Shown here: positions 2,386-55,454 of the stretch, piece after piece
Layout: each line of letters begins with the position of its first letter
Position numbering within the stretch: position 1 is the first letter of the stretch
Source of the DNA: Alphaproteobacteria bacterium
GTDB taxonomy: Bacteria; Pseudomonadota; Alphaproteobacteria; Rs-D84
DNA length: 64,000 nt
Assembly (NCBI GenBank): GCA_017520675.1
Contig: JAFXFG010000031.1
Span: forward strand, 574 to 64,573
Reading direction: 5' to 3'
Made by a program: the position numbers and the translations under genes
Notes under the pieces: model-generated
The model's input: the letters and a program-made list of their open reading frames with translations, nothing else
Databases searched by the model: none
What the model was told of the DNA's origin: nothing

Positions 2386-4383
2386 ATGAAAGTCTTGGTC
2401 GATGTGCATGATAAACGTTGGAATAAATTTAAAATAGATTTTGATGAAATTGCAAATGCAGTTGTCGGAAAAAAATATGAAAATTCCGAAGTGTCTGTGA
2501 TATTGACTAATGATAAAGAAATACAGCAAATCAATAAGCAATACAGAAATATCGATAAACCAACAAATGTATTGTCGTTTGAACTGGGGGACGATATTTT
2601 GCTGGGGGATATTTTTATTTCAATTGATACTGTACAGAGAGAGGCAAATCTAGAAAAGATAACAGTTGTTGAACATACGGCGCATATGTTGGTGCATGGG
2701 GTGTTGCACTTGTTGGGATACGACCATATCAAAGATGATGAAGCAGAGATTATGGAAGAAAAAGAAACAAAAATTTTAAAAAAATTGGGTATAAAAAATC
2801 CATATGCCATTGATGATGAGTGGCAATGTGATTCTGCGGAATGTTGTCCGTGGGGTGGTGTTGTCGCGTGGATTAAAAAACTTAAAATAAAAGAAAATGG
2901 GGTTTGGCAATATTTCCTATACGCATTGTTTGGTGGGGTTGCTTCATTTGGCTTTGCGCCGTTCTATTGTTGGTGGTTGGCTGTACTGGGGATTGGTGGT
3001 GCGTATTGGTTGACAGTCAAACAAAAACAAAAGTGTGGATTTTGGCGTGCTTGGTTGCGTGTATCACCGTTTGGTGCAGTTTATGCAATATCTATGTTTT
3101 GGTGGACTTTGCATTCAATTTATGTTGTGCCAGAATTGGCAAATCAATTTGCTGTTTGGACAATCCCAGGTGTGATTGGATTAGGAATTGCAGGTGCGTT
3201 TATATTTGTATGGCCATTTGTTGTAATTTCCTGTGTGCGCAGAAATCCTGCGTATAGCGCGATTTTATTCGCGGCTGTTTGGGTGTTGGTGTTGTGGGGG
3301 CGCGAGTGGATGTTTACAGGGTTTCCATGGAATCCAATTGCAAATATATCTTTGAATTTTCCGATGTTGGCTAATTCTATGTCTTTGTGGGGCGCGTTGG
3401 GGTTGACATTTGTAATTGTTGGTGGAATTGCAACCATAGTTGAGGTTATGCGAAAGCCAAAGTCAAAGGTTGTGTGGTGGGGATTGTTGGTATTTGTGTT
3501 GTTGGGGGCTGTGGGAATGTTGTGGGGGCGGTATAATATGCAGTTGGCAACAGTGGGTGAAAGCAATAATCATAAATTAATTCGAATCGTGCAACCTGCG
3601 TTAAATCAAGCACAAAAGGCAACACATAGCAGAGAGCAGGCAATAATAAATGCAGAAGATAATATGCGGGTCTTGTTCGAATTGGCGTCCGTTGATGAAC
3701 GACCTGATTTAATTGTTTTTCCTGAAACATCATATCCTTTTACGGTTTTGAAAGGGGATATAATGCCTTTGTCACAGGCGTTGGGCACAGATGTTATTGT
3801 CGGTGCAAATTTCTTGGATAATGGCAAGGTTTATAATGCAATGCTGTTCGCAGATAGATATGGTCAAATAAATCATATATACAGCAAGTCGCATTTGGTG
3901 CCGTTTGGTGAATATAGTCCATTGGGGATTTTGCCAAGTCCTGTAAATTTATCAGCAGGTCAGGGGGCAGAATTAGTCAATGTAAATGATTTGTTGGTTG
4001 CACCTGCGATATGCTATGAAATCATCTTTTCTGATTCTGTGATTCCAGATGGCAAAAAAACACCAAGTGCAATTGTGAATATTACCAATGATAATTGGTT
4101 TGGTAATACCCCAGGTACTTATCAACATCTGGATATGGTGCGCAGATATGCAATCGAATCTGGGGTGCCGGTGGTGCGTGCAAATTATTCGGGTATTAGT
4201 GCGTTTGTCTTGTCTGATGGTAATGTGTTGTCGCAATTGATGATTGGTGATTCTGGGGTTCTGGATGGCTTTGTGTGGGGTGCACATAATACACCATACA
4301 GAATGCTGGGGATGAATTTTTGGATGATTGTGATATTGGTATTTTCTGGATTGTGTTTGTTTGTGTTGCAACGAAGAGATTAA
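2386..4383 (+). CDS. ybeY-lnt: Fusion protein: YbeY endoribonuclease domain (N-terminal ~150 aa) joined to apolipoprotein N-acyltransferase Lnt
   Basis: The N-terminus carries the HGVLHLLGYDH YbeY zinc motif. It continues without a stop into Lnt-type transmembrane helices and a CN-hydrolase domain (ICYEIIFSD, NDNWFG). This is one uninterrupted 665-codon ORF. Confidence 0.75.
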   Translation: MKVLVDVHDKRWNKFKIDFDEIANAVVGKKYENSEVSVILTNDKEIQQINKQYRNIDKPTNVLSFELGDDILLGDIFISIDTVQREANLEKITVVEHTAHMLVHGVLHLLGYDHIKDDEAEIMEEKETKILKKLGIKNPYAIDDEWQCDSAECCPWGGVVAWIKKLKIKENGVWQYFLYALFGGVASFGFAPFYCWWLAVLGIGGAYWLTVKQKQKCGFWRAWLRVSPFGAVYAISMFWWTLHSIYVVPELANQFAVWTIPGVIGLGIAGAFIFVWPFVVISCVRRNPAYSAILFAAVWVLVLWGREWMFTGFPWNPIANISLNFPMLANSMSLWGALGLTFVIVGGIATIVEVMRKPKSKVVWWGLLVFVLLGAVGMLWGRYNMQLATVGESNNHKLIRIVQPALNQAQKATHSREQAIINAEDNMRVLFELASVDERPDLIVFPETSYPFTVLKGDIMPLSQALGTDVIVGANFLDNGKVYNAMLFADRYGQINHIYSKSHLVPFGEYSPLGILPSPVNLSAGQGAELVNVNDLLVAPAICYEIIFSDSVIPDGKKTPSAIVNITNDNWFGNTPGTYQHLDMVRRYAIESGVPVVRANYSGISAFVLSDGNVLSQLMIGDSGVLDGFVWGAHNTPYRMLGMNFWMIVILVFSGLCLFVLQRRD

Positions 4384-40035: not shown

Positions 40036-40578
40036 TTAATCTGTTTGATTTGCAAGTTGTTTTGCCTGTGCAAAAAAGGTTAGCGATTGTCCCAGCAGAC
40101 CGTCTGTAAATGTTGATGCCAATAACCCGTCCGTTTCGGTGGTGTTTAAGTGGTGCAGAAAATTGTCTGCGCGACGGATGTAATTGTCAATATTACGAAG
40201 AACCTCAGAGTCTAGTTTTATTGCACGACGCAATTTTTCAAGCGCAAAGGGATTCTTGGCGTATTCGTCCATTATGCCCCCAAGGGCGCGCCATAGTGCA
40301 TGCTCGGGCGTGTTGCGTGGCATTATGTCAATGGATGCCATAATTGGAATAAGATTTTGCAACAGGTCTTGGTATATCATTTCTGCGTGTTCTGCAACAG
40401 CGTTGGTCGCAGATTTGTTCTTTAGAATAGATTGGATTTTGACCAATAAGTTGTATTGGTGTTCAAGCGTCTTGTTCAGGTTGGTTGTGCATGCGTCCAG
40501 TTTGCGGATGTATATAAACAGACCAATTATTGATATTGTTATTAAAGTAAGTAAAACCAGTATGATGGTTGTTTGCAT
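40036..40578 (-). CDS. lemA: LemA-family membrane protein
   Basis: N-terminal TM helix and a LemA-like helical domain (QYNLLV..Q..L.). Confidence 0.6.
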   Translation of the reverse strand: MQTTIILVLLTLITISIIGLFIYIRKLDACTTNLNKTLEHQYNLLVKIQSILKNKSATNAVAEHAEMIYQDLLQNLIPIMASIDIMPRNTPEHALWRALGGIMDEYAKNPFALEKLRRAIKLDSEVLRNIDNYIRRADNFLHHLNTTETDGLLASTFTDGLLGQSLTFFAQAKQLANQTD

Positions 40579-40750
40579 GACTGTGTCCTTAGGCTTCGCT
40601 GTTTTTGAAATTTAATGACAGTATAACATAATTTTATCGATTCGCAGAATTTTATCTTTTTTAGTTTTTTATAGCCTGTTTTTAGGTCTTGCACAGATTC
40701 GGTCAAATTGTTATAATAATTATTAAAGAAGGAAGTAAAGGAAGGTCTGT

Positions 40751-41959
40751 ATGTTCCGTAAGATATTGATTTTTGCGATGTTTGCAACTGCCGCGGGGTA
40801 TTGTTTCGCATCTGATGATTTGCAACAAATTGTAACCTCAGAGGTTTTTTATGATAACGAAGTTGTCCCGTACGAGGATACTGTTGTTGTGCAGGAACAG
40901 ATTCCAACATGGCCTTTGATTGGGTCAGAGGCGGATGTTGAGGTCGGTTGTGAGGGAAATCCAAAGGTTAAACGACAGGATGATAATATTCGCATTGTGT
41001 CAAAGGTTGGTGATGATTTAGTTGTTGAAAATAACTTTAATATTGGGGCACGTGGTGAATTTACAGGCTGGTCTGGTGGTGCGAATATGTTGCATGGTAC
41101 GCAGATTCCTGTTGGTTTTGATGATGAGTGTTTGTCTAATACGGAAATGCCATTATTGCATCGCGAGGTTTTAGAAGACGATGGTGGAAATGTTTTGGCT
41201 GTGTCGCGCAGTGGACGCAAGGTGTGTGGTAGTGCAGATGCTTATAACGCGTTTTCGCTAAGGAATAATATGAATTTTAATGCGAAAAAAGGAACTGATG
41301 TTAAAAAAGCGGTTTTGGATAATGGAAACGCAGTTGTTTCTTCTGATGGAAGTAATGTAGTTATTTCTATGGCTGATGGTAATGTGGTTGTGTCTGAAAG
41401 TGGTGCGGTTTCTGCAAATGGAACAAGTCAAATTACACAGGATGGTGGTGATGTTGTCGCAACATCTGCAGATGGCAGTGTTACTGTATCCGTTGCAGAA
41501 AATGGTAGAATTGTTGTTACTTCCTATGAAAGTGAGGTTGTGGTAGAAGAGGGGACTATTGTTGCGGTTAGTGGTAATAGCGAGGTTTTAGAAGAAGAAA
41601 CAGAGAATTATGCAAGTGCGTCTGATGCCTTGGCAAATGTGCCAGAGGAAGAAATTGCAGTGGATGTTTCTGCAGATGCTGAGGCGCCAAAAGTATTGAA
41701 AGATCAGGTGCGTTCTTGGGTTGTTGTAAATGGGCAGACATTAAGAGAGGTCTTGCAATCGTGGGCGGATAAAGAAGGTTGGGATTTGGTTTGGACAACC
41801 GCGCGCGAATATCCAATTGAGGCAAGCGCAGTATTTAAAGGACGCTTTGTTGATGTAGCGTCGGCTTTGGTTCGTAATTTTGGACGTGCAACACCTGTAC
41901 CATATGCAAAGTTCTATAAAGGGAATAGGGTTTTGGTGGTTTCTACGGTTGATGAATAG
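40751..41959 (+). CDS. Secreted protein with a beta-rich repeat region and a TcpQ-like C-terminal domain (secretin-associated)
   Basis: Signal peptide MFRKILIFAMFATAAGYCFA and a VV/SG-rich repeat segment. The C-terminus WVVVNGQTLREVLQSWADKEGWDLVWTTAREYPIEASAVFKGRFVDVASALVRNF fits the TcpQ C-terminal/PFL_4695-type pattern. Confidence 0.5.
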   Translation: MFRKILIFAMFATAAGYCFASDDLQQIVTSEVFYDNEVVPYEDTVVVQEQIPTWPLIGSEADVEVGCEGNPKVKRQDDNIRIVSKVGDDLVVENNFNIGARGEFTGWSGGANMLHGTQIPVGFDDECLSNTEMPLLHREVLEDDGGNVLAVSRSGRKVCGSADAYNAFSLRNNMNFNAKKGTDVKKAVLDNGNAVVSSDGSNVVISMADGNVVVSESGAVSANGTSQITQDGGDVVATSADGSVTVSVAENGRIVVTSYESEVVVEEGTIVAVSGNSEVLEEETENYASASDALANVPEEEIAVDVSADAEAPKVLKDQVRSWVVVNGQTLREVLQSWADKEGWDLVWTTAREYPIEASAVFKGRFVDVASALVRNFGRATPVPYAKFYKGNRVLVVSTVDE

Positions 41960-41989
41960 TGATGGGGATGTCTGCTAAGGAGATATATT

Positions 41990-43618
41990 ATGATGAAAAC
42001 ATTAAAGATTTTTGCTGTTTGTGTTTTGGGGGCTGTCGCAGTTGCAGGATGCGCAAAGCGTGAGTCTGCCAAGGTAGCGGCAACCGTTGACCAAGACTTT
42101 GTTAATGCATATGATGCGTTTGAAATGGCAAAAAATCCACGTGCCAAGGTCGCAAGCGGTGATACTGTTTCTGTGTCCGAAGGTGTTTGGTTGGGAAATA
42201 AATCTGTGGTGCTGGAACATCGTAATAATTTGCCTGCGAAGTTCGAAACTGATACTGGGGTAACTATTTTGTTGAATGAGCCTGTTTCATTGCAGGTCTT
42301 GGCAAATGATATTTATTCAATTACGGGAATTCCTGTGAAAATTGATGGTCAGGTTTCGTATGATAAACTTAGAAATCAGGTTAATGTTGCATATACAGGA
42401 AAGTTGTCTGGGTTGTTATCTCAGGTCGCGACTGATTTAGATTTGTTGTGGTACTATGATAAGAATTCAATTGTGTTCTATGAAACGGAAACGCGTACAT
42501 TTACTTTGTATGCCTTGGGGACAGAGGTTGCATATCAAACATCTGTTTCGACAGATAATTCTAATGAGGTTTCATTGCAGTCTACATTGAAGGAATGGGA
42601 CGAGGTTGAAAATGCTATTTCGTCTATCTTGGGAAAAAGTAGTAATGCCGATTTTACCGTTTCGCGCAGTCTGGGGACAATTACAGTAACTGCATCGCCA
42701 TCTGTGTTGGCGCGTGTTGGTGAATATATCGAAAGACAGAATAAACGGTTAAGTCAATTGGTAACAATTGATGTTAAGGTTTTACAGGTAACTTTGTCTA
42801 ATGATACTGCATTTGGTTTGAATTTGGCAGCGGCGATTAATTCTACATCTGGGTTGAATATTGTTGCAAATCCGAAAAATAATTTGGCTTCGACTGAGGC
42901 AAGCTCTATGAATATTGCGGTGTTATCTAATGCGGTTTCTGCGTTAACTGGTGCCACACATATGGAAGGTGGAACAATGGTAGAAGGTGCATATACACAA
43001 GATCAGATTATGAACGGTTCGTTGTCTGGTGTTGCAGGCAGTGCTGCGTTGATAGAGGCTTTGGCAAAGCAGGGTAAGGTTTCGTTGGTAACAAATGTTG
43101 GTGTAACCACACGTTCGAATCGTGTTGCGCCGGTTAGCAATACACGCACAACTGGCTATATAAAACGATTCGAATCACGAAATTTTACAACGGTTGAATC
43201 AAGTACTGTTGATCAGGATGATTTAGAGACAGGGTTTACAATGCAGTTGTTGCCGAATGTCCTAGAAAATGGAAAAATTTTGTTGCTGTTCCGTATGTCG
43301 GTGCGTGAATTATTGCGTATGTCAACACAGACAATTGGCGAGGTTACTTTGCAGTTGCCAGAGGTTGAAGAACGCAGTTTTATGCAGGAAATTATTATGG
43401 AATCAGGTCAAATGTTAGTATTATCTGGGTTTGAAAAGCAGACAAATGAAGATACACGTTATGGCTTGGGGAATCCAGATTTTATGGCGTTGTCTGGGTC
43501 GCGTGAATCGTCATCTACGCGTGAAGTGTTGGTGGTTATCTTGACACCACAGGTACTGGTTAGCCCAATGGATGTTGAACGTGGAATTCAACAAAATTGG
43601 GGCGCACCATTGAATTAA
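41990..43618 (+). CDS. Lipoprotein secretin (pilus/secretion-type outer-membrane channel; TcpC/PilN-like)
   Basis: Lipobox AVAGC. Secretin C-domain hallmarks: LVTIDVKVLQV, ETGFTMQLLPNV, a Gly-rich LGNPDFMALSG and a terminal REVLVVILTPQVL. Confidence 0.7.
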   Translation: MMKTLKIFAVCVLGAVAVAGCAKRESAKVAATVDQDFVNAYDAFEMAKNPRAKVASGDTVSVSEGVWLGNKSVVLEHRNNLPAKFETDTGVTILLNEPVSLQVLANDIYSITGIPVKIDGQVSYDKLRNQVNVAYTGKLSGLLSQVATDLDLLWYYDKNSIVFYETETRTFTLYALGTEVAYQTSVSTDNSNEVSLQSTLKEWDEVENAISSILGKSSNADFTVSRSLGTITVTASPSVLARVGEYIERQNKRLSQLVTIDVKVLQVTLSNDTAFGLNLAAAINSTSGLNIVANPKNNLASTEASSMNIAVLSNAVSALTGATHMEGGTMVEGAYTQDQIMNGSLSGVAGSAALIEALAKQGKVSLVTNVGVTTRSNRVAPVSNTRTTGYIKRFESRNFTTVESSTVDQDDLETGFTMQLLPNVLENGKILLLFRMSVRELLRMSTQTIGEVTLQLPEVEERSFMQEIIMESGQMLVLSGFEKQTNEDTRYGLGNPDFMALSGSRESSSTREVLVVILTPQVLVSPMDVERGIQQNWGAPLN

Positions 43619-43642
43619 ATAAAAGAAAGGAGGGCATATAAG

Positions 43643-43993
43643 ATGTTAATGAAAAAATTATTTATTGTTTCTGGGATAATGATGGGCAGTGTGGCGGCCT
43701 ATGCCAATATCCCCAGTTCTGAATATATGGGACAGAAAATTGCGGAACATGCAAATAATGTGCAAAATCCACATTCAGTTACCAAGGCGCAGATTGGATT
43801 GGGAAATGTAGAAAATCTTAATCAGACAAATGCGGATAATTTGACAAGTGGTACGGTTTCCTTTGCGCGTCTGCCGGTTGGAACATCGGAAAATACGGTT
43901 GCAGCGGGTGATGATGTTCGATTTAATACAATTGCAACCGCACAACCAAATGGTACACCACCATCTGGTTCTGTTTTTGTGTGGTTTGAATAG
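43643..43993 (+). CDS. Small secreted protein (116 aa) encoded after the secretin gene
   Basis: Signal peptide MLMKKLFIVSGIMMGSVAAYA and RBS AAGGAGG. It contains SGTVSFARLPVGTSENTVAAGDD, reminiscent of phage tail-fibre motifs (tentative). Confidence 0.5.
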   Translation: MLMKKLFIVSGIMMGSVAAYANIPSSEYMGQKIAEHANNVQNPHSVTKAQIGLGNVENLNQTNADNLTSGTVSFARLPVGTSENTVAAGDDVRFNTIATAQPNGTPPSGSVFVWFE

Positions 43994-43997
43994 TTAA

Positions 43998-44028
43998 GTG
44001 CGCGCGGATAATGCGCGCTTTTTTTGTT
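43998..44028 (+). terminator. Rho-independent terminator
   Basis: GCGCGCGGATAATGCGCGC followed by TTTTTTT. Confidence 0.75.
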
Positions 44029-44037
44029 GTGCTTTCA

Positions 44038-44070
44038 TAAAAAAATTCCCCAATCGGGGAATTTTTTATT
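44038..44070 (-). terminator. Rho-independent terminator downstream of rpsT
   Basis: AATTCCCCAATCGGGGAATT flanked by A and T runs. Confidence 0.7.
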
Positions 44071-44997: not shown

Positions 44998-45059
44998 GTC
45001 TTTTGTCTTTATTTTTGGCGCTTTTTGTGGTATAATGCCCAATAATGAGGAAAGAGAAT

Positions 45060-45923
45060 ATGAAAAAATCATTTCTTTTGTTTTTCGGTATGTTTTGTTT
45101 GTTTGTTTCTGATGCAGGTGCTGCAAGGCCGTCTATGTCAGAGAAAATGATGGCTGCACCAAGGGCAGGGGTGGCATCTAAAAATCAGATTTCTGCCGCT
45201 GCAACATTAACCGCAGACGAGGCTGTTGTTAGTAAAGCAAGTCTTAAAGCGGGTGATGTGAATGCTAATTTAGAAATTAATCCTGATGAAATGCTGTCTG
45301 TTAAAAAGAATATGCGTGAAAAGGAAAGATTGGCTTGCATTAGCAATAATATCGGTATAAGTAATACTTTTGTTTGGGCATCACGATATAGTGATTCTTC
45401 TAGTTATGTGTCAATGGTTGAAGATGTTGAAGAGCCTGAGAATAATACTTGTTTCGTAAAGACTGCGTTGAAGTCAAATGATCCAAAAATTAATGTTTCA
45501 AATGTGCCGACAAGGTATTTTGAAATGGGGCAGGTGGTTACTTGTGGCGAATGGGCAGATTATGAGGCTTTGAAGCAACAGATATTGGATGCAAAAAAGA
45601 AGGGGCGTACGCTGGGGACTATTGCTGCGGTTGTCGGTGGGGCAGGTGTTGGTGTCGGCGCGATGGAATTGTTTGGAAACAAGGTAATCGGTGGTAAGGT
45701 CGAGGGGCAATATAATGAAAATTTGTCTGATGCACAATTGTTGCGTTCGCAATTGTTGACTTTGCAAAAGGAAGATGCAGCGAAATATAATGAATTTACA
45801 ACAAAGTTGGGACAGTTAAGAAAAAAGTGTACTGAGTTTGAAACCTCTTATAAAAATCAAACAGAACCGGCAGACTGCACTAAGTATAAGGATGTGTTTC
45901 CTTTGCTGGATTCGATGAAATAG
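45060..45923 (+). CDS. Secreted protein; short paralog of the giant Cys-rich protein, sharing its N- and C-terminal modules
   Basis: Signal peptide plus ARP...GVAS, and a C-terminal YFEMGQVVTCGEW...GGAGVGVGAMELFGNKVIGGKVEG aligning with YFALGDTFTCGSW...LGTGGAFLGNKIADGKIGG of the 49933-53175 protein. RBS GAGGAAAG. Confidence 0.6.
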   Translation: MKKSFLLFFGMFCLFVSDAGAARPSMSEKMMAAPRAGVASKNQISAAATLTADEAVVSKASLKAGDVNANLEINPDEMLSVKKNMREKERLACISNNIGISNTFVWASRYSDSSSYVSMVEDVEEPENNTCFVKTALKSNDPKINVSNVPTRYFEMGQVVTCGEWADYEALKQQILDAKKKGRTLGTIAAVVGGAGVGVGAMELFGNKVIGGKVEGQYNENLSDAQLLRSQLLTLQKEDAAKYNEFTTKLGQLRKKCTEFETSYKNQTEPADCTKYKDVFPLLDSMK

Positions 45924-45963: not shown

Positions 45964-46008
45964 CTGGATATTGTGCTTTATTTAATTAGAAGGGTTTTAT
46001 ATTATATG

Positions 46009-47037
46009 TTTATGTCAGATATTTATAACAAGTTATTGATTTTGCGTACGCCTGGGATTGGACCCGTAAAGTTTAATTCATTAATTAAACGATTCGGTAA
46101 TGTGGCATCGGCTGTGCTGTCTTTGGGACCGGATGTTGCGTTTTGCGATTCGGTTAAACGCGAAATGGAAAAAGCACAGCAACTGGGGATACATTATTTA
46201 TCAGATGATGATGTGTTGTATCCTGAAAATTTGAGAAAAGTAAAAAATCATCCGCCAGTGATTTCTGTGCGTGGCAATTTAGATTCTTTATCAAGACCGA
46301 TGGTGTCGATTGTTGGTACAAGGCACGCAACAGTTGCAGGAATGAATTTTGTCGCAGATTTGGCACAGGCATTTGCCGATTCGGGGACGGTTGTTGTTTC
46401 GGGTATGGCAATCGGTACAGATACCGCAGCACATCGTGGGGCATTGCGTGCACAGGGCAATATGCAAACAATTGCGGTCTTGGCGGGTGGGGTGGATTAT
46501 GTTTGGCCGCCGGAAAACGAATCGTTATATTATCAAATACTAGAACGTGGTGCGGTTATCAGTGAGATGCCAGTTGGCTTTGTCCCAGTTGCAACTAATT
46601 TTGTTCAACGAAACAGATGGGTGGCAGGATTGGCAGATAAACTGATTCTGGGTGAGGCTGATTTAAAGTCTGGTTCTATGACAACTGCCCGATTCGCAAT
46701 CGATTATGGACGCGAATTGTGGGCAATACCATCACATCCCGCAGATTTGCGCGCAGTTGGGCCGAATTCTCTGATTCGGTCGGGTGATGCAAAACTGTGT
46801 ATGGGGATACAAGATTTTTTTAAAACAGAAAGGTTTGATGCAAATTCTGAAAAAAAATTAGAAAAGTTTAATGCGGAAAATAATCTTCTTGATGCGTTAG
46901 GAACAAATCCAGTGTCAGAATCTGTATTGGCAGAAGTTGTCAAAAAATCTGTTTCGGAAATTAAACGAGATTTGGTTGTCTTGGAATTGCAAGGTTTAGT
47001 TCAAAAAGTCGATGGTGGTTATGTTCGTTTGGTTTGA
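46009..47037 (+). CDS. dprA: DNA processing protein DprA (Smf)
   Basis: Rossmann-like DprA core (VVSGMAIGTDTAAHRGAL; GETDLKSGSMTTARFAIDYGRELWAIP) and a C-terminal winged helix. Confidence 0.85.
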   Translation, partial: FMSDIYNKLLILRTPGIGPVKFNSLIKRFGNVASAVLSLGPDVAFCDSVKREMEKAQQLGIHYLSDDDVLYPENLRKVKNHPPVISVRGNLDSLSRPMVSIVGTRHATVAGMNFVADLAQAFADSGTVVVSGMAIGTDTAAHRGALRAQGNMQTIAVLAGGVDYVWPPENESLYYQILERGAVISEMPVGFVPVATNFVQRNRWVAGLADKLILGEADLKSGSMTTARFAIDYGRELWAIPSHPADLRAVGPNSLIRSGDAKLCMGIQDFFKTERFDANSEKKLEKFNAENNLLDALGTNPVSESVLAEVVKKSVSEIKRDLVVLELQGLVQKVDGGYVRLV

Positions 47038-47391
47038 AAAAAATGTCTATACAGTGTATATACAAAGGGCAGAAAACAGCCAAAAAAACGAATCGTTGTC
47101 AAAAAATAAATGTTCAAAAATCGGTTAATATTTAGTTGTAAATTGATTTTTATATTCTAAATTATCAATCGTATCCAAAAGAAAAATAAACAAACAAATT
47201 AAAGCGAGAGAGTTTAAAGTAGGAATAAAAAATATTTGTTAATTCTGTGAATTGTAATCTGATTTTTGAAAGGAGAAATTAATATTACAATTCATAAAAA
47301 AAGAATTAATAGGTATTTTCCCTGGGGTGGTTTTTATAACCTGTGGCAGGGTGGAATTGGCTTTCTCGGAAGGAAGGAAAGGAGAAACAAT

Positions 47392-48678
47392 ATGCAGGCA
47401 CAAACAGCGGCAAATACACAAATGACAAACTTGGAAAATATCAAGGGGGCCATTGCCGCAAAAATGGATTCTGCATCTTTTACTTCTTGGATTGCACCTT
47501 TGACCATGGATGTTGTTGATGGAAATTTGGTATTGTGTGCACAAAATCAATTCTCGGCTGATTTTATTACAAGTGTTCATAAGGCTGTTTTAGCTGATGT
47601 AGCAGCAGAATTTGGTTTGGGGTTGGATATCGTTGTTCGTAACAGTGCAACACGTGCAACTGCATCAATTGCAAATGATAATCAGGCACAGGTATATGCA
47701 CCAGTTGTAAAGACTGTTGCGGATTCTGTTAATTTTGATAGTTTTGTTACATCTGATGAAAATGCATTTGTTGTATGTGCATGCAAAAAATTGGCAACAG
47801 GAACTGCGCCTTTTACACAGTTGTTTATTTATGGGGCTGCTGGTTGTGGTAAATCTTTGTTGGCCGATTGTATCGCAGGTGCATGTACAGGTCGTGTTGT
47901 AAAAATGTCTGGCGCACAATTTGTTTCTGAATTTACACGTTCTTTGAAAGAACATAATGTTTTTGCATTTAAAGATTTCTGCCGTAACTGCAATTTGTTT
48001 ATTTTGGACGATGTTCAGGCGTTGGCTGGTAAAAAGGCATCAACCGAAGAATTCTTGCAATTGATTGTTGATTTGCGTAATGCAGGTAAAAATGTTGTTT
48101 TGACTGCGGATGCAGCCCCCAGCAATTTGACAGGATTTGACCGTCATTCTCAGGGTGTTTTGGCATCTGGATTGGTTGCAGATGTTGCAGTACCAAACGC
48201 GCATGTTAAAACTGTTATCTTGCAACGCGCAGGTGTCAAGGCAGATGTTGCAACTGCTCTGGCTACACGCGTCGCAAATGATGGCCACTTGATTGCAGGT
48301 GTTGCGACAAAAATCAAAACATATGTTGACTTGATGGGTGCAGATGTTGATATTGATGTTGCAAAACGTCTGTTGGCAGATACATTAACAGCCGTTAAAA
48401 CACCAAACGCGATGGTTCGTGATATGTGCGAAAAATTAGGTGTTTCATATGATGCAGTTTGTGGAAATGGGCGCAGTCGCAACTTGGTTTTTGCACGTCA
48501 GATAATGATGGTTGTATTAAAGAATGCGACATCTTTGTCCTTGGCGGAAATCGGTAATTTTGTTGGTGGTCGTGATCATGCAACAGTTTTGTACGCGGTA
48601 AAGCAGATTGAAAAACAAAAGGCAACAGACTTGGTGTTGGCAGCGCAGATAGAACAATTTATCGCAGACTGCAAATAA
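47392..48678 (+). CDS. dnaA: Chromosomal replication initiator DnaA
   Basis: AAA+ Walker A GAAGCGKS, box VII and a C-terminal DNA-binding domain (VVLKNATSLSLAEIGNFVGGRDHATVLYA). Start chosen at MQAQTAAN with RBS AAGGAAAGGAG. Confidence 0.9.
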   Translation: MQAQTAANTQMTNLENIKGAIAAKMDSASFTSWIAPLTMDVVDGNLVLCAQNQFSADFITSVHKAVLADVAAEFGLGLDIVVRNSATRATASIANDNQAQVYAPVVKTVADSVNFDSFVTSDENAFVVCACKKLATGTAPFTQLFIYGAAGCGKSLLADCIAGACTGRVVKMSGAQFVSEFTRSLKEHNVFAFKDFCRNCNLFILDDVQALAGKKASTEEFLQLIVDLRNAGKNVVLTADAAPSNLTGFDRHSQGVLASGLVADVAVPNAHVKTVILQRAGVKADVATALATRVANDGHLIAGVATKIKTYVDLMGADVDIDVAKRLLADTLTAVKTPNAMVRDMCEKLGVSYDAVCGNGRSRNLVFARQIMMVVLKNATSLSLAEIGNFVGGRDHATVLYAVKQIEKQKATDLVLAAQIEQFIADCK

Positions 48679-48696
48679 AAATTAAATATAATGGTC

Positions 48697-48768
48697 TATC
48701 TAAATGCGGTGCCGGAAACTCATGTATCATTTGTACACATCGTTTCCGGCACTGCGTTTATCTAAACC
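48697..48768. repeat. Imperfect inverted repeat / hairpin downstream of dnaA
   Basis: TATCTAAATGCGGTGCCGGAAAC ... GTTTCCGGCACTGCGTTTATCTAAA. A related GCGTT..TTATCTAAATC segment recurs at about 48845-48875. Confidence 0.6.
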
Positions 48769-48919
48769 ATTCTATTTAATTTTATAAAATTAACCATAAT
48801 AATTCATCTAAAACCAATCCTGCCAACTTATGTAACTTCTGTACACTGCGTTGTCGGGATTGATTTTATCTAAATCATTATAATTAATTTTAACCCCTGC
48901 AAGGGGCGGGTAAGAATAA

Positions 48920-48962
48920 GTCCCTGCGGGGCAATGGATACCCGCCTGCGCGGGTATGACGA
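48920..48962 (+). repeat. Solo copy of a 43-bp palindrome-containing repeat
   Basis: GTCCCTGCGGGGCAATGGATACCCGCCTGCGCGGGTATGACGA. Confidence 0.8.
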
Positions 48963-49061
48963 CGAACGAGGGGGGGACGAAGGGTTGGGGTGTGTGTGAA
49001 AAGCCACATCGATGATAAAGAGTTGAATATTTATAATTTTTGTGGGGTGCTCACATACACA

Positions 49062-49103
49062 CGTCATTCCCGCGCAGGCGGGAATCCACTGCCCCGCAGG
49101 GAC
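49062..49103 (-). repeat. Inverted copy of the 43-bp repeat, abutting the 3' end of the GIY-YIG gene
   Basis: CGTCATTCCCGCGCAGGCGGGAATCCACTGCCCCGCAGGGAC with a perfect ATTCCC-N8-GGGAAT core. Confidence 0.8.
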
Positions 49104-49105
49104 CT

Positions 49106-49420
49106 TTATTCGTTGTTATAACCGTTTTCAGATAATACATCTGGGTATAAATCATTCCAATCTGGATTTTTTTGAATAATTAAGCGATATTTCCAGTTTC
49201 GTTGCCATTTTTTTAATTGGCGTTCGCGCAGAACCATTTCTTTTATTGAATCGTGCCATTCATAATAAACCAGATTGTTGATATTGTATTTAGAAGTAAA
49301 GCCTGGGATGATTTTATTTTTATGTTGCCAAATACGTCCAACTAAATCGGTGGTGGAACCGATGTACAATGTTCCCATTGGGCCGGAAGATAAGATATAA
49401 ACATAACCGCCTGATTTCAT
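49106..49420 (-). CDS. Small GIY-YIG nuclease-family protein (COG2827/YhbQ-like)
   Basis: GYVYILSSGPMGTLYIGSTTDLVGRIWQHK...YYE is a GIY-YIG signature. The gene is bracketed by inverted copies of the 43-bp repeat. Confidence 0.75.
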   Translation of the reverse strand: MKSGGYVYILSSGPMGTLYIGSTTDLVGRIWQHKNKIIPGFTSKYNINNLVYYEWHDSIKEMVLRERQLKKWQRNWKYRLIIQKNPDWNDLYPDVLSENGYNNE

Positions 49421-49458
49421 AGTGCCTAATTATAATGCACAAATAAAAAATATCAATA

Positions 49459-49900
49459 TGTCCCTGCGGGGCAATGGATACCCGCCTGCGCGGGTATGAC
49501 GAGAGTGTAAGGGCGGGGCCCGATACGCGGGTATGACGAAGAGACGGGGGTGGGGTGTTGGGTGTTTAATATGTCCCTGCGGGGCAATGGATACCCGCCT
49601 GCGCGGGTATGACGAGAGCGTAAGGGCGGGGCCCGATACGCGGGGGCGATGAGGGCTGAGTGTGTTGGGTGTTTAATAAGTCCCTGCGGGGCAATGGATT
49701 CCTGCCTGCGCAGGAATGACGATGAACGAGGACGAGGCCTGATACAGGAATGACGAGTGTGTGAGTGGGCGCGATGCGCGGGGGCGATGAGGGCTGAGTG
49801 TGTTGGGTGTTTAATATGTCCCTGCGGGGCAATGGATACCCGCTGCGCGGGTATGACGAATGTGTGAGTGGTGGGGAATTAAAAATCCCCCAATTGCTTG
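49459..49900 (+). repeat. Tandem array of four copies of the 43-bp repeat with 107-138-bp periods and partially conserved inter-repeat sequence (not CRISPR)
   Basis: Copies start at 49459, 49573, 49680 and 49818. The spacers share GGGTGTTTAATA and CGGGTATGACGA sub-repeats. Confidence 0.8.
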
Positions 49901-49932: not shown

Positions 49933-52900
49933 CTATTCCGACATCGATGTCGAAATCATATCGCCATATGTACCGACTTCGTCAGCACCGATAAAGCAAC
50001 GGATTTTCGACCCGATATTGTCCATAAATTCTTGATAGGCTTCTTGTTCAGCTGAATCAAGTTTTGTATTATGGGCATCTTTGACAATGTGATATGCGGC
50101 CAAACCACCCGCCAATGCGGTGCCAGCACCAACAATCGTTGCACCACCCCATTTTTGGAACCAGCCATCTTTTGCATCAGTGTTTGTGAACTTTTCGCAC
50201 TGTTCTTTTATTTTTGCTAATTCGGTGTACGCTTTGCCGGTTTTAGTTTTTTGTGTTTCTATGACTATTGTGCTTCCATCGGTGTCAAGAAGGTCGTCGT
50301 GTTTAAACTCCAGTGCCTCACGAGCATTTGATATCATGGTGTTCGCACTGAGCTGTGTCATGCCAGATGGCAATTCCTGTGCACTTTTTACAATGCTTTC
50401 AAAGGCGGATATTGCGTCTTTAGCATTCTTGAGCGCAGTGTTTAGTGCTGGTTCTGTTAATTGCTGTGTAGAACTACCATTTTTCCATTGTTCAAACATA
50501 TTCAGTGCGGCCTGGGCATCTGTTTTGCAAGAATTGATGTTGTTGATGATTTTCTTGGAACGGTTGTTCCCGTTCAAACCACCAATTTTACCGTCGGCAA
50601 TCTTGTTGCCCAGGAATGCACCGCCGGTACCCAATGTAACTGCAGATGCGGCAGTTGCCCAGAATTTTTGACGACGTGCTTTGTCGGTGGCTTTGCCGTC
50701 TTTGTCTTCCAGACCGGTGGCAACACGTGCTGCCTGGCCGGCTGCATCAGCCAATGCCTCTAAATCAGCAGATGATAACCATGAACCACAGGTAAATGTA
50801 TCACCCAATGCAAAGTATGCAGTTGACCATGAAGCGTTATTTTTTATTGCTTCTTGGATATATTTATCGTTGGACTGCAATGTTACACGCAGGCGACAGA
50901 ATGAACCATATAAATCATTGCTGGCCACGAATTGGTTCGTGTCAAGACCAGACATCGCATAGTTCTTTGGTACATCTTTGCCTTTTAGTTTTACCCACAT
51001 GTATGTAGAGCCGTTGTCTTTGTTGCCTATTATGCCACCGGCATTTGATGACAGGCACATATTTTGTTCTTTGGTTAATTTTGCGTTATATTTTGCCTGG
51101 GCTTCTTTTTCAATGTCATAGACCAAATCCTTGAACAAACTGTTCGCAACCTGTGTTTGGCGATATGTGTCAACTGATACATATACAGGTTGATCAAAGA
51201 TGTTGCCTGTTTCATCCATTTTATAACATATACCTTCGACACCGGATTTGTTTGTGCAGATTTCTTGACCGTTTTCGTCAACTTTTTTTACACCTTCTAC
51301 GGCGGTCATTTTGCTTGCACTGCCGGCATCATACCAACCAGAGCGTACAGAGTCAGCGGTTTCACCACCGTTGGTCCCCCATGTGTTGGCTAGATTGTTA
51401 TTTTGGTTAATATTGAATTTTGCGGTTTCAATTGCCAGATGTTCTGCACAGACATCAGAGTCTTTGACGGTGTTAACACATAATCCCAGTATGATTGTAT
51501 AGTCAAGTACACCACCGACCTTGTTCATTGATTTATCAAATGCAGCGTCGCCAGTGCTGGTCAAACTGGACATTACGTCTGTACGATTGCGATAGCAATT
51601 GACATAGTCAGGACCGCACATTGATCTGACGCAACTGCTTGCCAATGTTTGACATTGTTTTTTCATTTGTGCAATTGCTGCATCGTTGTATGAATTGTTC
51701 AATGTTGCGTCCAGATTTGCAACAACCCCAATTGGATCAAGTTTGGTGTCTGCGTGTGGGAACAGGGTTGTAAACGCGTCCCCTTGGTTGTATGTATAGT
51801 TAAAGCCACCAGATGTTGTCGGGTTTTGCGCCGCATAAATACAGTTTGGATCGGTGTTCACAACAGATGTGCAACCACGTTGAATTTCTTGGTATGTGTT
51901 GTCGCCATTTATTCCGATACCACTGGCCAATTTATAGCATGCAGCGCCAGAACCACCACCGCATACGCGCATCGCGCAAGAGCGGATTGTCTGTGTGCAC
52001 TTATCCTTGGCATCAGTATCAAATTTATTTACTAGGTCAGAAATCTTGGACATCATTCCAGAATTCATACGGGTAGAATATGCCTGAGAAAAGACATCTT
52101 CTTGGTTGAATTCATCGCGCAATTCAGAATTGGTTGGCATTTTGCCGTCGCCAATAAATGTTGCATAGCAATATTTATTTTGACCAATTGTATCCATACA
52201 TTCGCCACGAATGTATCTGTTGATGTCCGATTTGCTTAATGCTTCGGAAAGGGTGTCAGATAATTGTGTGGTTGTGCCTTTTAATATCGATTCAACGGTT
52301 GCAACAAGGGCACCTGGGGTGTTCTCGTAACATTTGTATGGATTCTTGGTGCAGGCATTTAATATACATTGATCAACAACACGATAACAGGTCGATACTG
52401 CATTTATTGCCGCCAATGTTGCGCCGTCTGCAATCATTGTGCCAACACGACTGCTGGTTTCAGGGTCAACAGTGCGTGATGCAGTGCCGAATAGTTCTTT
52501 TAAGCCATCGCTTTGACAGCGGGCCAGTACGGAATCGCAACTGACGCGTTGTTTTTTGAATTCTGAATTTGATGTGCATAGTTCAAAATCAGAACCACAA
52601 ACATTTTCGCGATTTAAACATGTGGTGTAACGACGCACGCAATCAGATGTGTTGTACATATTTGATATTGCACCAGCAGTAATTAACTGACCCAGTGCGC
52701 TGTCGTCGTCTGGATATGTGTAGTCAGTGATTTCGTCAAATTCATTTTTGCTGGCAACCTGAGATAAATTGTCCATATTGGTTGTGCCAAATAACTTTTG
52801 AATTCCACCAGTTGAACATTGGTACAGTGTGCCAATGCATTGTGGCATCTTGGCATGGAATAGAACCTTGGTTGTACATTCTTCAAAGTTTGAACCACAG

Positions 52901-53175
52901 TTTTCTGGGGCCTTGATACAGGTCAGATATTCGTTTACGCATTTTGTGTCGTCTAGTAGTGAAGATGTTGTTGCAGCAGGTAATGTGGCGCTGTTGTTGT
53001 TCGCAGCAGCATTAGCCAATGCAGATGCCATCGTGGGCATACGACGACCAGATGCAGCAATGCTGGTAACCTTGCCTGTTGGCATTATGCCAGGACGCGC
53101 AGTTACACCATGTGCAACAGATACAATGCTGAATGCAAAGATTAAACTGAATGTATGCTTTAAAAATGATGACAT
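49933..53175 (-). CDS. Giant (1080 aa) secreted Cys-rich protein, probably surface-associated
   Basis: RBS AGGAG before the ATG at 53175. Signal peptide MSSFLKHTFSLIFAFSIVSVAHG. Repeated Cys modules (C..YLTCIKAPENCGSNFEECT; CVRRYTTCLNRENVCGSDFELCT). The C-terminal module is shared with the 45060-45923 paralog. Confidence 0.6.
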   Translation of the reverse strand: MSSFLKHTFSLIFAFSIVSVAHGVTARPGIMPTGKVTSIAASGRRMPTMASALANAAANNNSATLPAATTSSLLDDTKCVNEYLTCIKAPENCGSNFEECTTKVLFHAKMPQCIGTLYQCSTGGIQKLFGTTNMDNLSQVASKNEFDEITDYTYPDDDSALGQLITAGAISNMYNTSDCVRRYTTCLNRENVCGSDFELCTSNSEFKKQRVSCDSVLARCQSDGLKELFGTASRTVDPETSSRVGTMIADGATLAAINAVSTCYRVVDQCILNACTKNPYKCYENTPGALVATVESILKGTTTQLSDTLSEALSKSDINRYIRGECMDTIGQNKYCYATFIGDGKMPTNSELRDEFNQEDVFSQAYSTRMNSGMMSKISDLVNKFDTDAKDKCTQTIRSCAMRVCGGGSGAACYKLASGIGINGDNTYQEIQRGCTSVVNTDPNCIYAAQNPTTSGGFNYTYNQGDAFTTLFPHADTKLDPIGVVANLDATLNNSYNDAAIAQMKKQCQTLASSCVRSMCGPDYVNCYRNRTDVMSSLTSTGDAAFDKSMNKVGGVLDYTIILGLCVNTVKDSDVCAEHLAIETAKFNINQNNNLANTWGTNGGETADSVRSGWYDAGSASKMTAVEGVKKVDENGQEICTNKSGVEGICYKMDETGNIFDQPVYVSVDTYRQTQVANSLFKDLVYDIEKEAQAKYNAKLTKEQNMCLSSNAGGIIGNKDNGSTYMWVKLKGKDVPKNYAMSGLDTNQFVASNDLYGSFCRLRVTLQSNDKYIQEAIKNNASWSTAYFALGDTFTCGSWLSSADLEALADAAGQAARVATGLEDKDGKATDKARRQKFWATAASAVTLGTGGAFLGNKIADGKIGGLNGNNRSKKIINNINSCKTDAQAALNMFEQWKNGSSTQQLTEPALNTALKNAKDAISAFESIVKSAQELPSGMTQLSANTMISNAREALEFKHDDLLDTDGSTIVIETQKTKTGKAYTELAKIKEQCEKFTNTDAKDGWFQKWGGATIVGAGTALAGGLAAYHIVKDAHNTKLDSAEQEAYQEFMDNIGSKIRCFIGADEVGTYGDMISTSMSE

Positions 53176-53252
53176 TCCCAACTCCTGTTTTTTCTAGTTT
53201 TATTATTTTATTTTAACATAATTTGACGGTATTAAAAAGCAAAAAGTTGTTG

Positions 53253-53990
53253 TTAAAATAAAATGTTTATTTGTGCGCCAACTTGGATGTCGTCGCTTTC
53301 GAATTCATAGTCAAAATGGCCCGAATATTGCGTGCGACCAAATTGACGAATTAGTTTAAAATGCAGCCATTCTTGGTCATAATTTTGGCCGGTAATACGG
53401 TCTTGATTTGTTGCGACGCGTATCGTTAGACCTGTGCCAAAGCGCCAGTCTGGGGCAATTCTGAAATATGCCTGGGGGATAAAATCAAGAAATGCCATGC
53501 CACGCAAATCGTCAAATATCCAACTGGATTTAATCGTGCCAGATAATGTCATCCCAGCCCATTGACGACCAAAACGAAGTCCTGCGTAGTATGTAGAGTC
53601 CGCATATTCTGGGGTGCGAACATGACTGCTGCCACCGAATTTAAAACCGAATATTACATCTGATATGATGCCAGAATTGTTGTCGTTCGCGGTTGCAATA
53701 CGATAAAATCCACCAAGGTCTGTTGATGCAAAGCCATCTTCACTGCCGTTAAAATCGTGTTGATAATGAATGTTTAAACCAACAGATAAACGATCGTTAA
53801 AGCCGTATGATAATGACTGGCCTGCGCGAAGAATATGATCCCAGTATGTTAGTGTGGTTTTTGATAATATGCTGGATTTTGGTTGTATGTATAGTGGGTC
53901 AGATGTGTCGTGTTCAAGTATGTTTGAATGACCAAGTGTTGGTAGTAGTAATGATAATGCAATAAAGATTCTTGATAAAAATTTGTGCAT
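53253..53990 (-). CDS. Outer-membrane beta-barrel protein (possibly MipA/OmpV-like)
   Basis: Signal peptide MHKFLSRIFIALSLLLPTLGHS, about 245 aa, alternating beta strands and a C-terminal INILF. Confidence 0.55.
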   Translation of the reverse strand: MHKFLSRIFIALSLLLPTLGHSNILEHDTSDPLYIQPKSSILSKTTLTYWDHILRAGQSLSYGFNDRLSVGLNIHYQHDFNGSEDGFASTDLGGFYRIATANDNNSGIISDVIFGFKFGGSSHVRTPEYADSTYYAGLRFGRQWAGMTLSGTIKSSWIFDDLRGMAFLDFIPQAYFRIAPDWRFGTGLTIRVATNQDRITGQNYDQEWLHFKLIRQFGRTQYSGHFDYEFESDDIQVGAQINILF

Positions 53991-54066
53991 GGGAATTCTC
54001 TCTCGCTTTGTGAAAAAAAGTATTTTTGCCCCCAAGCGTAATCGTTGGGGGCAGGGGTGTATAATT

Positions 54067-55365
54067 TTAGAACTGGAATATTGCCTGTACACCGATTGTT
54101 GTTTCGGCAATGTTATCCAATTTTACTGTCCCGATGTTTGTTAATTGTTCCAGTGGGAATACTTCACCATTAGCTGGATTTTCGGCTTCGATATGAGGTT
54201 CCATCCAGTATAGGTCAAGATTTTTGCTGTTCGCACTGTCATAGAATGCGGTTTTAGCATATAGGTTCAACGCAAACCAATCGTTTGGTTGCCAGCCAAT
54301 TGCACCCTTGATAGATGCCTGGTTGTGCCAGTCGTAATGACCAAATGTACCCTCTAGGTTTAGGGTCCAATCTTCGTTCAGAACACTGAACATACCAAGA
54401 CCACCTTCGATGTATATGGCATTGCTGCTGCCGACCTGATAGGGAATATAGAATGTTGCAGAATCGCCGTTTTCGTCAGAACCGGTTATGCCGTTGCCAT
54501 AAGAATTGCCTTCTAAATCAAGATACCAGCCACGTACCAATCCATAAATTGTGGATTTAGATACTTTGTAGCCGGCCTTGATATCCAACAAGAAATTGTT
54601 TGATATGTCTTTCTGATGTTGGAAGTATGCAGATGCGGTTGCAATCCATTTGTCGTTGTCGATAAAACGCCATTGTGCGCCAAGCCCAAATATATTCAGT
54701 CCGTTGTCGTCCATTGTGTCCGCTGGGGCACCGTTATCGTATTCAAACTTGTAATCGTTCATATCATATTCAAGTAAGCCAACCAATGCGATTTGGTCGT
54801 TGATACCATAACTGAAATGTTCTTTGGCTGAAATTTGATTGGATTTCCATTTGCCACCAACACCATCAAGTGCTAAGGAAAATGCACTGCCACTGCCGAT
54901 TTCGCGAATTGGTAGTGTTTGATTGATTACAAAGTCATATGAACTGGTTGTATAACCAAGGTCAGTAATAGAACCAAATTTTTCGCCCAATGGTTGAAAG
55001 AATGGGTGTGCAAGGTAGTATTTGCGACGCATCTTGGTTGTTACGGTTTCAGAACGGGTCTTGCGTACTGTGCTTTTTGTCGCAGTTGCCGCAGGGGATT
55101 GGGCGCCAGTATATGATTTATACATTGTATTGCGATTTGCAGGCTTTACATAATACATGTCGCCATTGTTTTTTGTTTCGTATGTCTTGGTTGTTGTACG
55201 GGTTGTATATTTTTTGTAATTTACACTGGTTTGTTCACGTGTCGCAGGGGCATCCGATAAGTTCGCAGTTGTTCCAGCGCGTGTGCCGACATTGGTCGCA
55301 GCATTCGTGGCAGTTGTGCCAAGAATAGCCAGTGCACTAAAAAATAATGGTAATGTTCGTTTCAT
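54067..55365 (-). CDS. Outer-membrane beta-barrel protein (porin-like) with a Thr/Lys-rich N-terminal extension
   Basis: RBS AAGGAG, a signal peptide and a C-terminal GVQAIFQF. Confidence 0.55.
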   Translation of the reverse strand: MKRTLPLFFSALAILGTTATNAATNVGTRAGTTANLSDAPATREQTSVNYKKYTTRTTTKTYETKNNGDMYYVKPANRNTMYKSYTGAQSPAATATKSTVRKTRSETVTTKMRRKYYLAHPFFQPLGEKFGSITDLGYTTSSYDFVINQTLPIREIGSGSAFSLALDGVGGKWKSNQISAKEHFSYGINDQIALVGLLEYDMNDYKFEYDNGAPADTMDDNGLNIFGLGAQWRFIDNDKWIATASAYFQHQKDISNNFLLDIKAGYKVSKSTIYGLVRGWYLDLEGNSYGNGITGSDENGDSATFYIPYQVGSSNAIYIEGGLGMFSVLNEDWTLNLEGTFGHYDWHNQASIKGAIGWQPNDWFALNLYAKTAFYDSANSKNLDLYWMEPHIEAENPANGEVFPLEQLTNIGTVKLDNIAETTIGVQAIFQF

Positions 55366-55454
55366 TTTAATTCTCCTTTTGTGTGGTATTATAACATAAA
55401 TAATTGCTGTAAAAAAGAAAAAACAGCGCGGATTGCGCGCTGAGTATAGTGTTC

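Follow-up and report, generated by a model that had tools for sequence, protein, structure and literature searches.

A 64,000-nt stretch of DNA from an alphaproteobacterium (hereafter the window) contains, at positions 40751–44028, three co-oriented open reading frames (ORFs) separated by short gaps, which encode a TcpQ-like secreted protein, a lipoprotein secretin, and a 116-aa secreted protein. The host is Candidatus Enterousia (Alphaproteobacteria, order Rs-D84), an uncultured gut bacterium with a genome of less than 1 Mb. The first two genes, we conclude, very probably specify the outer-membrane module of a type IVb pilus system with dispersed genes, a machine of the BfpB-BfpG, TcpC-TcpQ, and PilN kind. 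This conclusion is based on the homology of the pair to a solved complex, the contiguity of the whole operon in outgroups, the presence of secretin-less pilOPQR operons in congeners, a prepilin gene in the species of the window, and strong purifying selection. The machine is of a known kind, and is modestly unusual in its split gene layout and its enlarged TcpQ-like partner.

The secretin contains a lipobox (...AVAVAG-C21; nt 42050–42052) in which Cys21 is invariant among 43 homologs and is the predicted site of lipidation, as well as a secretin domain at aa 357–523 (Pfam PF00263, 50.5 bits against a cut-off of 27.5), which agrees with the initial annotation of this DNA, where a lipoprotein secretin had been read from the AVAGC motif. 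Secretins of the BfpB/TcpC/PilN type are themselves lipoproteins and do without a separate pilotin. Its best NCBIfam model is TIGR02520 (PilN-family type IVB pilus outer membrane protein; 241 bits in four stretches), and it is 27–29% identical to annotated plasmid PilN proteins and BfpB over 85–94% of its length. The sole sequence match in the PDB is BfpB (9u5s_A, E 2e-43), with three colinear phmmer segments relating aa 32–523 to BfpB 13–528. Its domain order is that of BfpB, linker(LG)-N0-N3-secretin, with neither N1 nor N2: an N-terminal linker with a partner-binding region (~aa 22–125), N0 and N3 (~aa 130–300), a lineage-specific loop (~aa 300–348), and the beta-barrel (aa 357–523). An AlphaFold2 model computed with 43 homologs has a mean pLDDT (predicted local distance difference test score) of 67, with the N0, N3, and barrel blocks mostly at 73–86, the linker at aa 44–77 of low confidence, and the extra loop of ~40 aa before the barrel poorly modeled. 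A Foldseek search with this model returned secretins only, of which 9u5s_A was the best (E 2e-28, 530 aligned columns) and the next had an E-value of 9e-15.

The gene immediately upstream encodes the prospective partner of the secretin. The TcpQ-like C-terminus that the initial annotation had attributed to this secreted protein is borne out by a match to Pfam TcpQ (PF10671) at aa 321–398 (nt 41711–41944; 68.6 bits against a cut-off of 27) and by the match of aa 312–398 to BfpG (chain R of PDB 9u5s, E 8e-16). The 9u5s entry is the 17:17 BfpB-BfpG complex of the bundle-forming pilus of enteropathogenic Escherichia coli, in which BfpG, a protein of N0-like fold, attaches around the N3 ring to the N-terminal LG linker of the lipoprotein secretin, and assembly depends on it; Vibrio cholerae has a homologous pair, TcpC-TcpQ (PMC12531336). 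By analogy, the TcpQ-like protein may form a stoichiometric ring around the secretin and would probably be needed for secretin assembly. Preceding its TcpQ domain are a Sec-type signal peptide (aa 1–20), a lineage-specific Cys-containing N-terminal domain (~aa 21–180), a V/S/G-rich insert of ~105 aa (~aa 180–290), and a linker. The insert is common to the window copy and its closest relative (locus L052) only, and a search for tandem DNA repeats within it found none. The Cys-containing domain is conserved among the TcpQ-like partners (~130 aa), and a profile built from 32 sequences of it matched nothing in PDB or Pfam. For the TcpQ-like protein, AlphaFold2 run on the single sequence gave an unusable model (pLDDT 35), which does not confirm the TcpQ fold.

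We scanned one genome per species with an alignment of four secretins as the query, which identified 315 loci encoding secretin relatives. The best 80 of these, at 83–96% identity, all belong to the Enterousia clade and provide the identity medians given below; they are metagenome-assembled genomes (MAGs) labeled Candidatus Enterousia or unclassified Alphaproteobacteria, a few of them with other labels. Presence and absence were counted in 83 Enterousia-type loci. In a wider sampling, one representative was taken per 50%-identity cluster, followed by a profile search for more distant secretins, which yielded related lineages in other uncultured Alphaproteobacteria and in 'Rickettsiales' MAGs. 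At 90% identity or more, the secretin is found in over 120 database clusters, all from uncultured gut or rumen Alphaproteobacteria.

Both genes of the pair are intact in 83/83 related loci, with the tcpQ-like gene always directly upstream of the secretin gene. The median identity to the window protein is 89% for the secretin and 89% for the TcpQ domain, and 62% for the N-terminal domain of the TcpQ-like protein; the medians for housekeeping proteins in the same genomes are 79% (SufB), 83% (S20), 78% (PlsY), and 68% (DnaA and DprA). Because the identity of the secretin exceeds that of all five, we conclude that the pair is under strong purifying selection and is no remnant, as the initial annotation had suggested it might be.

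That annotation also stated that the window contains no ATPase, platform, or pilin gene, and this is correct. Pfam scans of ~55 ORFs in the window found no ATPase, platform protein, PilO, or prepilin peptidase; tblastn queries with the PilO, PilP, ATPase, and platform proteins of the lineage had no match in it, and a motif scan of its six frames found no prepilin. In three outgroup loci, L085, L094, and L086 (secretins 63%, 66%, and 42% identical to that of the window, respectively), the gene order is tcpQ-secretin-PilO(PF06864)-PilP-like-T2SSE-T2SSF, with a PilP-like protein of 227–273 aa. An annotated Salmonella plasmid type IVb cluster has the identical order (TcpQ-family protein, PilN, PilO2, PilP, ATPase, platform). 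In L093 and L084 (secretins 83% and 79% identical), as in all 83 Enterousia-type loci, the pair has none of these genes beside it, and its surroundings are those found in the window (sufBC ... rpsT-plsY-dprA-dnaA). The operon is broken after the secretin gene in Enterousia and its nearest relatives, and because L093 and L084 share this layout, the split is old and stable.

The remainder of the machine is encoded elsewhere in these genomes. The ATPase of L085, used as a query, matched more than 120 clusters at 71–76% identity. One of these (P0404) is on contig JAZTWE010000001.1 (Candidatus Enterousia sp.), which also carries secretin locus L051; here, 14.4 kb downstream of the secretin and in the same orientation, a series of genes begins that encodes PilO (420 aa), a protein of 220 aa, the ATPase (543 aa), and the platform protein (357 aa), and a prepilin gene lies 5 kb beyond them. 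In L058, PilO starts 9 kb from the secretin, and in five other Enterousia contexts a pilO-pilP-ATPase-platform operon occurs with no secretin nearby. The usual layout in the genus is lpxK-lpxC-104aa-PilO-PilP-like-ATPase-platform-189aa-gyrB. The 220–227-aa protein that precedes the ATPase in congeners contains a coiled coil and a beta domain and is PilP-like, while the PilO of L087, with a score of 25.0 slightly under the Pfam cut-off of 26.7, shares 34% identity with the PF06864-annotated PilO of L085. Because the adjacency of the operon to gyrB is found in the unsplit L085 locus too, these arrangements suggest that tcpQ-pilN is the piece that was separated from the rest of the operon. The initial annotation had described the pair as an orphan and possibly a minimal conduit, with a cluster encoded elsewhere as the alternative; the orphan description is refuted at the genus level because the remaining machine genes are found in congeners and outgroups, and that cluster has been located in congeners, not in the species of the window itself.

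Just upstream of pilO, a gene for a 104-aa predicted lipoprotein is conserved (L118 3649–3963, L088 7653–7967, and L122 3651–3965) and overlaps the pilO start in L118. This protein may be another part of the machine that lacks an annotation. A search from the fructose-bisphosphate aldolase gene beyond the window end returned only relatives of at most 75% identity, with a pilin and no pilO nearby, so the aldolase-to-pilO synteny of L087 does not hold generally.

Two contigs (L090 and L091) are 99.9% identical to positions 52242–64000 of the window and extend past its end. They show a prepilin gene 351–815 bp beyond position 64000 (L090 8027–8491), ~20.7 kb downstream of the secretin and divergent from uvrC. 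The 154-aa ORF begins MFQESG/RSMIEMLGVLAIMGVITVG, where the slash marks the end of the leader, with Gly at -1, Glu at +5, and a hydrophobic N-terminal helix (class III signal). A motif scan of all loci collected found this ORF conserved in 21, with the general form M.QESG/RSMIEMLGVLAIMGVITVG.

Several observations weigh against the assignment to a type IVb pilus machine. The secretin is under the curated TIGR02520 equivalog cut-off (241 against 287.65 bits), and its match to Secretin_N_2 (PF07655) is not significant (E 0.63, 11 bits); this domain is carried by the plasmid-type relatives P0294–P0309, and the alphaproteobacterial clade is without it. The pilin is likewise atypical. Type IVb pilins have a long leader, a residue other than Phe at +1, and a larger mature protein, while type IVa pilins have Phe at +1; the pilin described here has a leader of six residues, Arg at +1, and a mature length of 148 aa, a type IVa-like size, and its Pfam N_methyl score of 15.2 bits is under the 21.2 cut-off. 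It presumably belongs to this machine, as the sole prepilin seen. No pilOPQR operon was found for the species of the window, for which an exact 24-mer from the window-extending contig matched nothing among metagenome contigs; its presence is predicted from congeners with secretins 87–88% identical. No prepilin peptidase (Peptidase_A24) was found in the window and ~120 loci, where a scan for the GxGD[..]K motif matched PlsY only, and tblastn with the prepilin peptidase of a plasmid type IVb pilus against the ~120 loci found nothing.

The third gene differs from the pair. Its 116-aa product has a signal peptide and a tail-fiber-like motif (...NPHSVTKAQIGLGNVENLNQTNADNL...AAGDDVRF...), and is followed by a terminator-like hairpin, all as initially annotated. 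The protein has no match in Pfam or NCBIfam. The short motif matches phage tail-fiber, tail-collar, and minor-tail proteins (PHROGs, E ~1e-9), and the protein matches annotated phage minor tail proteins with E-values of 1e-4 to 1e-6; a search of viral contigs found no relative. With a 24-nt gap after the secretin stop codon, a strong AGGAGG ribosome-binding site, and no terminator between them, the gene is predicted to be co-transcribed with the tcpQ-secretin pair in the window strain. The three-gene operon proposed initially is found as a layout in the window, and the third gene is not a member of the conserved unit. Homologs of 97–419 aa occur in 14/83 related loci, and the closest relative (L052, secretin 96% identical) lacks the gene and has a spacer of 182 bp instead. 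Across species, the stretch from the secretin to the next conserved gene measures 47–3647 bp and is empty (47–500 bp) in roughly half; elsewhere its contents vary by species and include outer-membrane-protein pairs, Cys-rich surface proteins, an RNase T-like gene, and Gly-rich proteins, many of the encoded proteins having signal peptides. Because the gene is found in only these 14 loci, is missing from L052, and sits in a variable slot, we regard the 116-aa protein as an accessory passenger at a rearrangement-prone junction, neither a conserved substrate nor a component of the machine.

Other proteins associated with this slot were noted. The tail-fiber-motif gene is sometimes followed by one for a Gly-rich protein of 324–332 aa (L024 12480–13472; homologs in L026, L027, L039, L077, and L083) that has no Pfam or PHROG match, the two forming a two-gene accessory module. 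The window itself encodes two Cys-rich secreted proteins without a Pfam match (49933–53181, 1082 aa; 45045–45923, 292 aa), which have in common a Gly-rich hydrophobic C-terminal segment. Similar-looking proteins of 713–778 aa are encoded in the post-secretin slot or beside the platform gene in other loci (L006 11475–13631, L007 12091–14427, and L087 13609–15798), and together these may constitute a variable surface-protein family. A pair of predicted outer-membrane beta-barrel proteins of 432 and 285 aa, both ending in Phe and without a Pfam match, is encoded at 53253–55365; homologs of this pair occupy the slot downstream of the secretin in L044 (11718–13831).

Based on homology to the solved BfpB-BfpG complex, we propose the following model. 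The secretin would be exported by Sec, lipidated at Cys21, and taken to the outer membrane via the Lol pathway; Lnt (2386–4383) and LolA (18807–19418), as lipoprotein maturation and trafficking require, are encoded in the window. In the outer membrane the secretin would assemble into a gated multimeric channel, with the periplasmic TcpQ-like protein binding the N-terminal linker of the secretin around the N3 ring and probably being required for assembly. A pilus fiber built from the 154-aa type IV pilin encoded past the right end of the window would cross this channel. The inner-membrane part would comprise PilO, the PilP-like protein, a GspE/PilB-family ATPase, and a GspF-family platform protein, the four genes of which form a separate operon in the genus, usually lpxC-104aa-pilO-pilP-ATPase-platform-gyrB. 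The pilus would most likely serve adhesion or aggregation on partner cells or a gut surface, a role that we can only infer.

Other explanations assign a different job to the same genes. As the main alternative, the dispersed type IVb machine could primarily serve DNA uptake, for competence or nucleotide scavenging, rather than adhesion, which we consider unlikely but not negligible. DNA uptake has been proposed for type IV pili of other reduced-genome, partner-dependent bacteria, and dprA (45973–47037; Pfam DNA_processg_A, 205 bits) lies 2 kb downstream and is syntenic with the pair in 44 loci. The lack of several biosynthetic pathways and standard transporters in Rs-D84, for which a partner-dependent life was proposed (PMC12306168), is in keeping with such a role. 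However, almost all bacteria have DprA, neither comEC nor comEA was noticed in the window or the loci, though no search was aimed at either, and the characterized relatives (the bundle-forming pilus, the toxin-coregulated pilus, and the R64 thin pilus) serve adhesion, aggregation, or mating-pair stabilization. It is improbable that the machine is mainly a secretion device with the variable downstream genes, such as that of the 116-aa tail-fiber-like protein, as its substrates. Some type IVb systems do secrete a soluble protein, TcpF and CofJ being examples, and the slot after the secretin holds varied genes, many with signal peptides. But the slot is empty in roughly half of the species, and where it is occupied the items are unrelated, as expected of a rearrangement-prone junction and not of a substrate cassette.

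Two further possibilities do without a working pilus, and we give them very little credence. A stand-alone export conduit of secretin and TcpQ-like protein, perhaps exporting the 116-aa protein and lacking pilus machinery, would account for a 64-kb window with no ATPase, platform, or pilin gene and for the predicted co-transcription of the 116-aa gene with the pair. Against it are the secretin-less inner-membrane operon of congeners, the contiguity of the same genes with the pair in outgroups, the prepilin gene just outside the window, and the fact that 69/83 loci, among them that of the closest relative, lack the 116-aa gene, yet all keep the pair. Least probable of all is a decaying remnant, left by genome reduction, of a type IVb pilus cluster or of the pilus cluster of a conjugative element. 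The ancestral operon is indeed broken and the genome strongly reduced, but both ORFs are intact in every Enterousia-type locus, the secretin is more conserved than the five housekeeping proteins compared, the split is shared with L093 and L084 and so is old and stable, and the region matches its surroundings in GC content and has housekeeping flanks without integrase or transfer genes.

If the pair does form the outer-membrane part of a type IVb machine with dispersed genes, the stable genus-wide split shows that the apparent absence of partner genes within a 64-kb neighborhood is no evidence of an orphan. A complete-looking, highly conserved pilus would also be a handle on attachment or uptake by uncultured, probably partner-dependent gut bacteria. 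Enterousia, with genomes of 0.75–1.0 Mb that lack the TCA (tricarboxylic acid) cycle, respiration, and standard transporters, is placed in the order Rs-D84, whose genomes are without several biosynthetic pathways and standard transporters; the scarcity of recognizable transport and interaction functions was stressed in the same work, which mentions type IV pili for another lineage only (PMC12306168). A bolder idea, for which the odds are rather poor, is that the type IVb pilus is a core, indispensable organelle with which the sub-1-Mb, metabolically dependent Enterousia and Rs-D84 lineage attaches to partner cells or the gut surface or takes up material from them. The idea is compatible with our data because the pair is genus-universal and outranks several housekeeping genes in conservation, and because the genomes have little else with a surface-interaction annotation. 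If it is true, this pilus would be an alphaproteobacterial counterpart of the pilus-dependent life proposed for Patescibacteria, and the N-terminal Cys domain of the TcpQ-like protein and the unusual Arg+1 pilin would be adaptations of the machine.

The features of the locus are collected in Table 1. The candidate promoter ends 34 nt upstream of the tcpQ-like start codon and is a consensus match alone; each of the three genes is preceded by a Shine-Dalgarno-like sequence.

Table 1. Genes and predicted signals of the secretin locus (window positions)
Feature	Position	Strand	Basis
Promoter-like site	40690..40717	+	TGCACA, 16-nt spacer, TATAAT, TG extension (extended -10); consensus scan, 10/12 matches
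TcpQ/BfpG-like secretin partner, 402 aa	40751..41959	+	Pfam TcpQ PF10671
Lipoprotein secretin, probably of the BfpB/TcpC/PilN (type IVb pilus) kind, 542 aa	41990..43618	+	Pfam Secretin PF00263
Accessory secreted protein, 116 aa, phage tail-fiber-like motif	43643..43993	+	PHROGs matches
Terminator-like hairpin GCGCGCGGATAATGCGCGC and T-run	43996..44020	+	Terminator scan
Second terminator-like hairpin, with T-run	44040..44067	can serve both strands, faces rpsT	Terminator scan

The pair had been placed between lemA and rpsT. The right neighbor is rpsT, homologs of which in L084 and L093 carry PF01649. The left neighbor, a 180-aa gene on the minus strand (40036–40578), has no Pfam LemA match even at E<=1, and we rejected that label; because it travels with sufBC and is absent from unsplit pilus operons, we do not count it in the pilus system. 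The genes recognizable by Pfam among the ORFs of the window are all housekeeping, including sufBC, rpsT, plsY, dprA, dnaA, gatAB, a gyrB/parE-like topoisomerase subunit, dnaJ, uvrC, lolA, and lnt, and Pfam scans of the flanks of the pair found no integrase or transfer genes. Rfam identified three tRNAs in the window and nothing else.

Several features elsewhere in the window were also noted. The 1.2-kb gap between dnaA and the gene for the 1082-aa Cys-rich protein contains, at 48915–49843, a cluster of six or more GC-rich repeats of ~42–77 nt with the unit GTCCCTGCGGGGCAATGGATACCCGCCTGCGCGGGTATGACG and a palindromic core, AT[AT]CC[CT]-N8-[AG]GG[AT]AT, one copy being inverted (49057–49103); the segment beside this cluster (48677–48912) recurs twice next to dnaN in L090. 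These repeats look like an intergenic element of the REP (repetitive extragenic palindromic) or MITE (miniature inverted-repeat transposable element) type. GC skew is strongly positive (~0.2–0.4) over most of positions 1–49,000, with a dip to ~0 at 30–34 kb, and is ~0–0.1 after ~50 kb; this shift coincides with the repeat cluster, and there is no sign change, although dnaA is at 47266–48678. An 85-nt direct repeat (22783–22867 and 24924–25008, 96% identical), which duplicates the 3' end of a flavin mononucleotide-dependent dehydrogenase gene, flanks a 2.1-kb segment just upstream of tRNA-Lys (25112). The segment contains two minus-strand ORFs (347 aa, trypsin-like; 318 aa, unknown) and may be an insertion with target duplication. 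The uninterrupted ORF at 2386–4383 (665 aa) joins a YbeY endoribonuclease domain (aa 19–134) to LNT_N and CN_hydrolase domains (apolipoprotein N-acyltransferase), and looks like either a fused gene or two genes with no intervening stop codon. Positions 521–2368 encode a 615-aa protein with a phage-lysozyme-like domain and tetratricopeptide repeats. A lytic transglycosylase is encoded in type IVb pilus clusters of plasmids, but a link of the 615-aa protein to the pilus is pure speculation.

Among known systems, the pair most resembles BfpB-BfpG. The window secretin is a predicted lipoprotein colinear with BfpB over aa 32–523 (linker, N0, N3, and secretin domain), for which BfpB is the best match by sequence (E 2e-43) and by fold (E 2e-28), the C-terminal domain of the partner matches BfpG (E 8e-16), and the partner gene is immediately upstream of the secretin gene. 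Unlike BfpB-BfpG, from which the pair has diverged to ~25–29% identity, the window partner has 402 aa (~300 aa in congeners) compared with 114 aa for the BfpG chain in 9u5s, contains the additional conserved Cys-containing N-terminal domain for which no homolog was found, and is matched with a secretin that has the ~40-aa extra loop before its barrel. The enlarged partner adds a variant to the BfpB-BfpG mode of assembly. The genes in the window are moreover chromosomal, in a housekeeping context, and apart from the rest of the machine.

The PilN proteins of plasmids and integrative and conjugative elements (R64-type thin pili) are similar to the window secretin in that TIGR02520 is its best model, identity is 27–29% over ~90% of the length, the outgroup gene order is that of the annotated Salmonella plasmid cluster, and a TcpQ-family protein is adjacent. 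They differ in that the window secretin scores 241 against the 287.65 bits of TIGR02520 and has no significant Secretin_N_2 (PF07655), its genes are on no mobile element, the cluster is split, and neither a prepilin peptidase nor a lytic transglycosylase nor a shufflon-type adhesin was seen next to them. The likeness to TcpC-TcpQ of the toxin-coregulated pilus of V. cholerae is through the Pfam family named after TcpQ, to which the window partner belongs, and through homology to BfpB-BfpG; in both systems a lipoprotein secretin is combined with a periplasmic partner that is not a lipoprotein. Type IVb clusters are usually compact, and the genes of the toxin-coregulated pilus are found as a single cluster in a pathogenicity island, in contrast to those of the window lineage, which are dispersed over at least three chromosomal loci.

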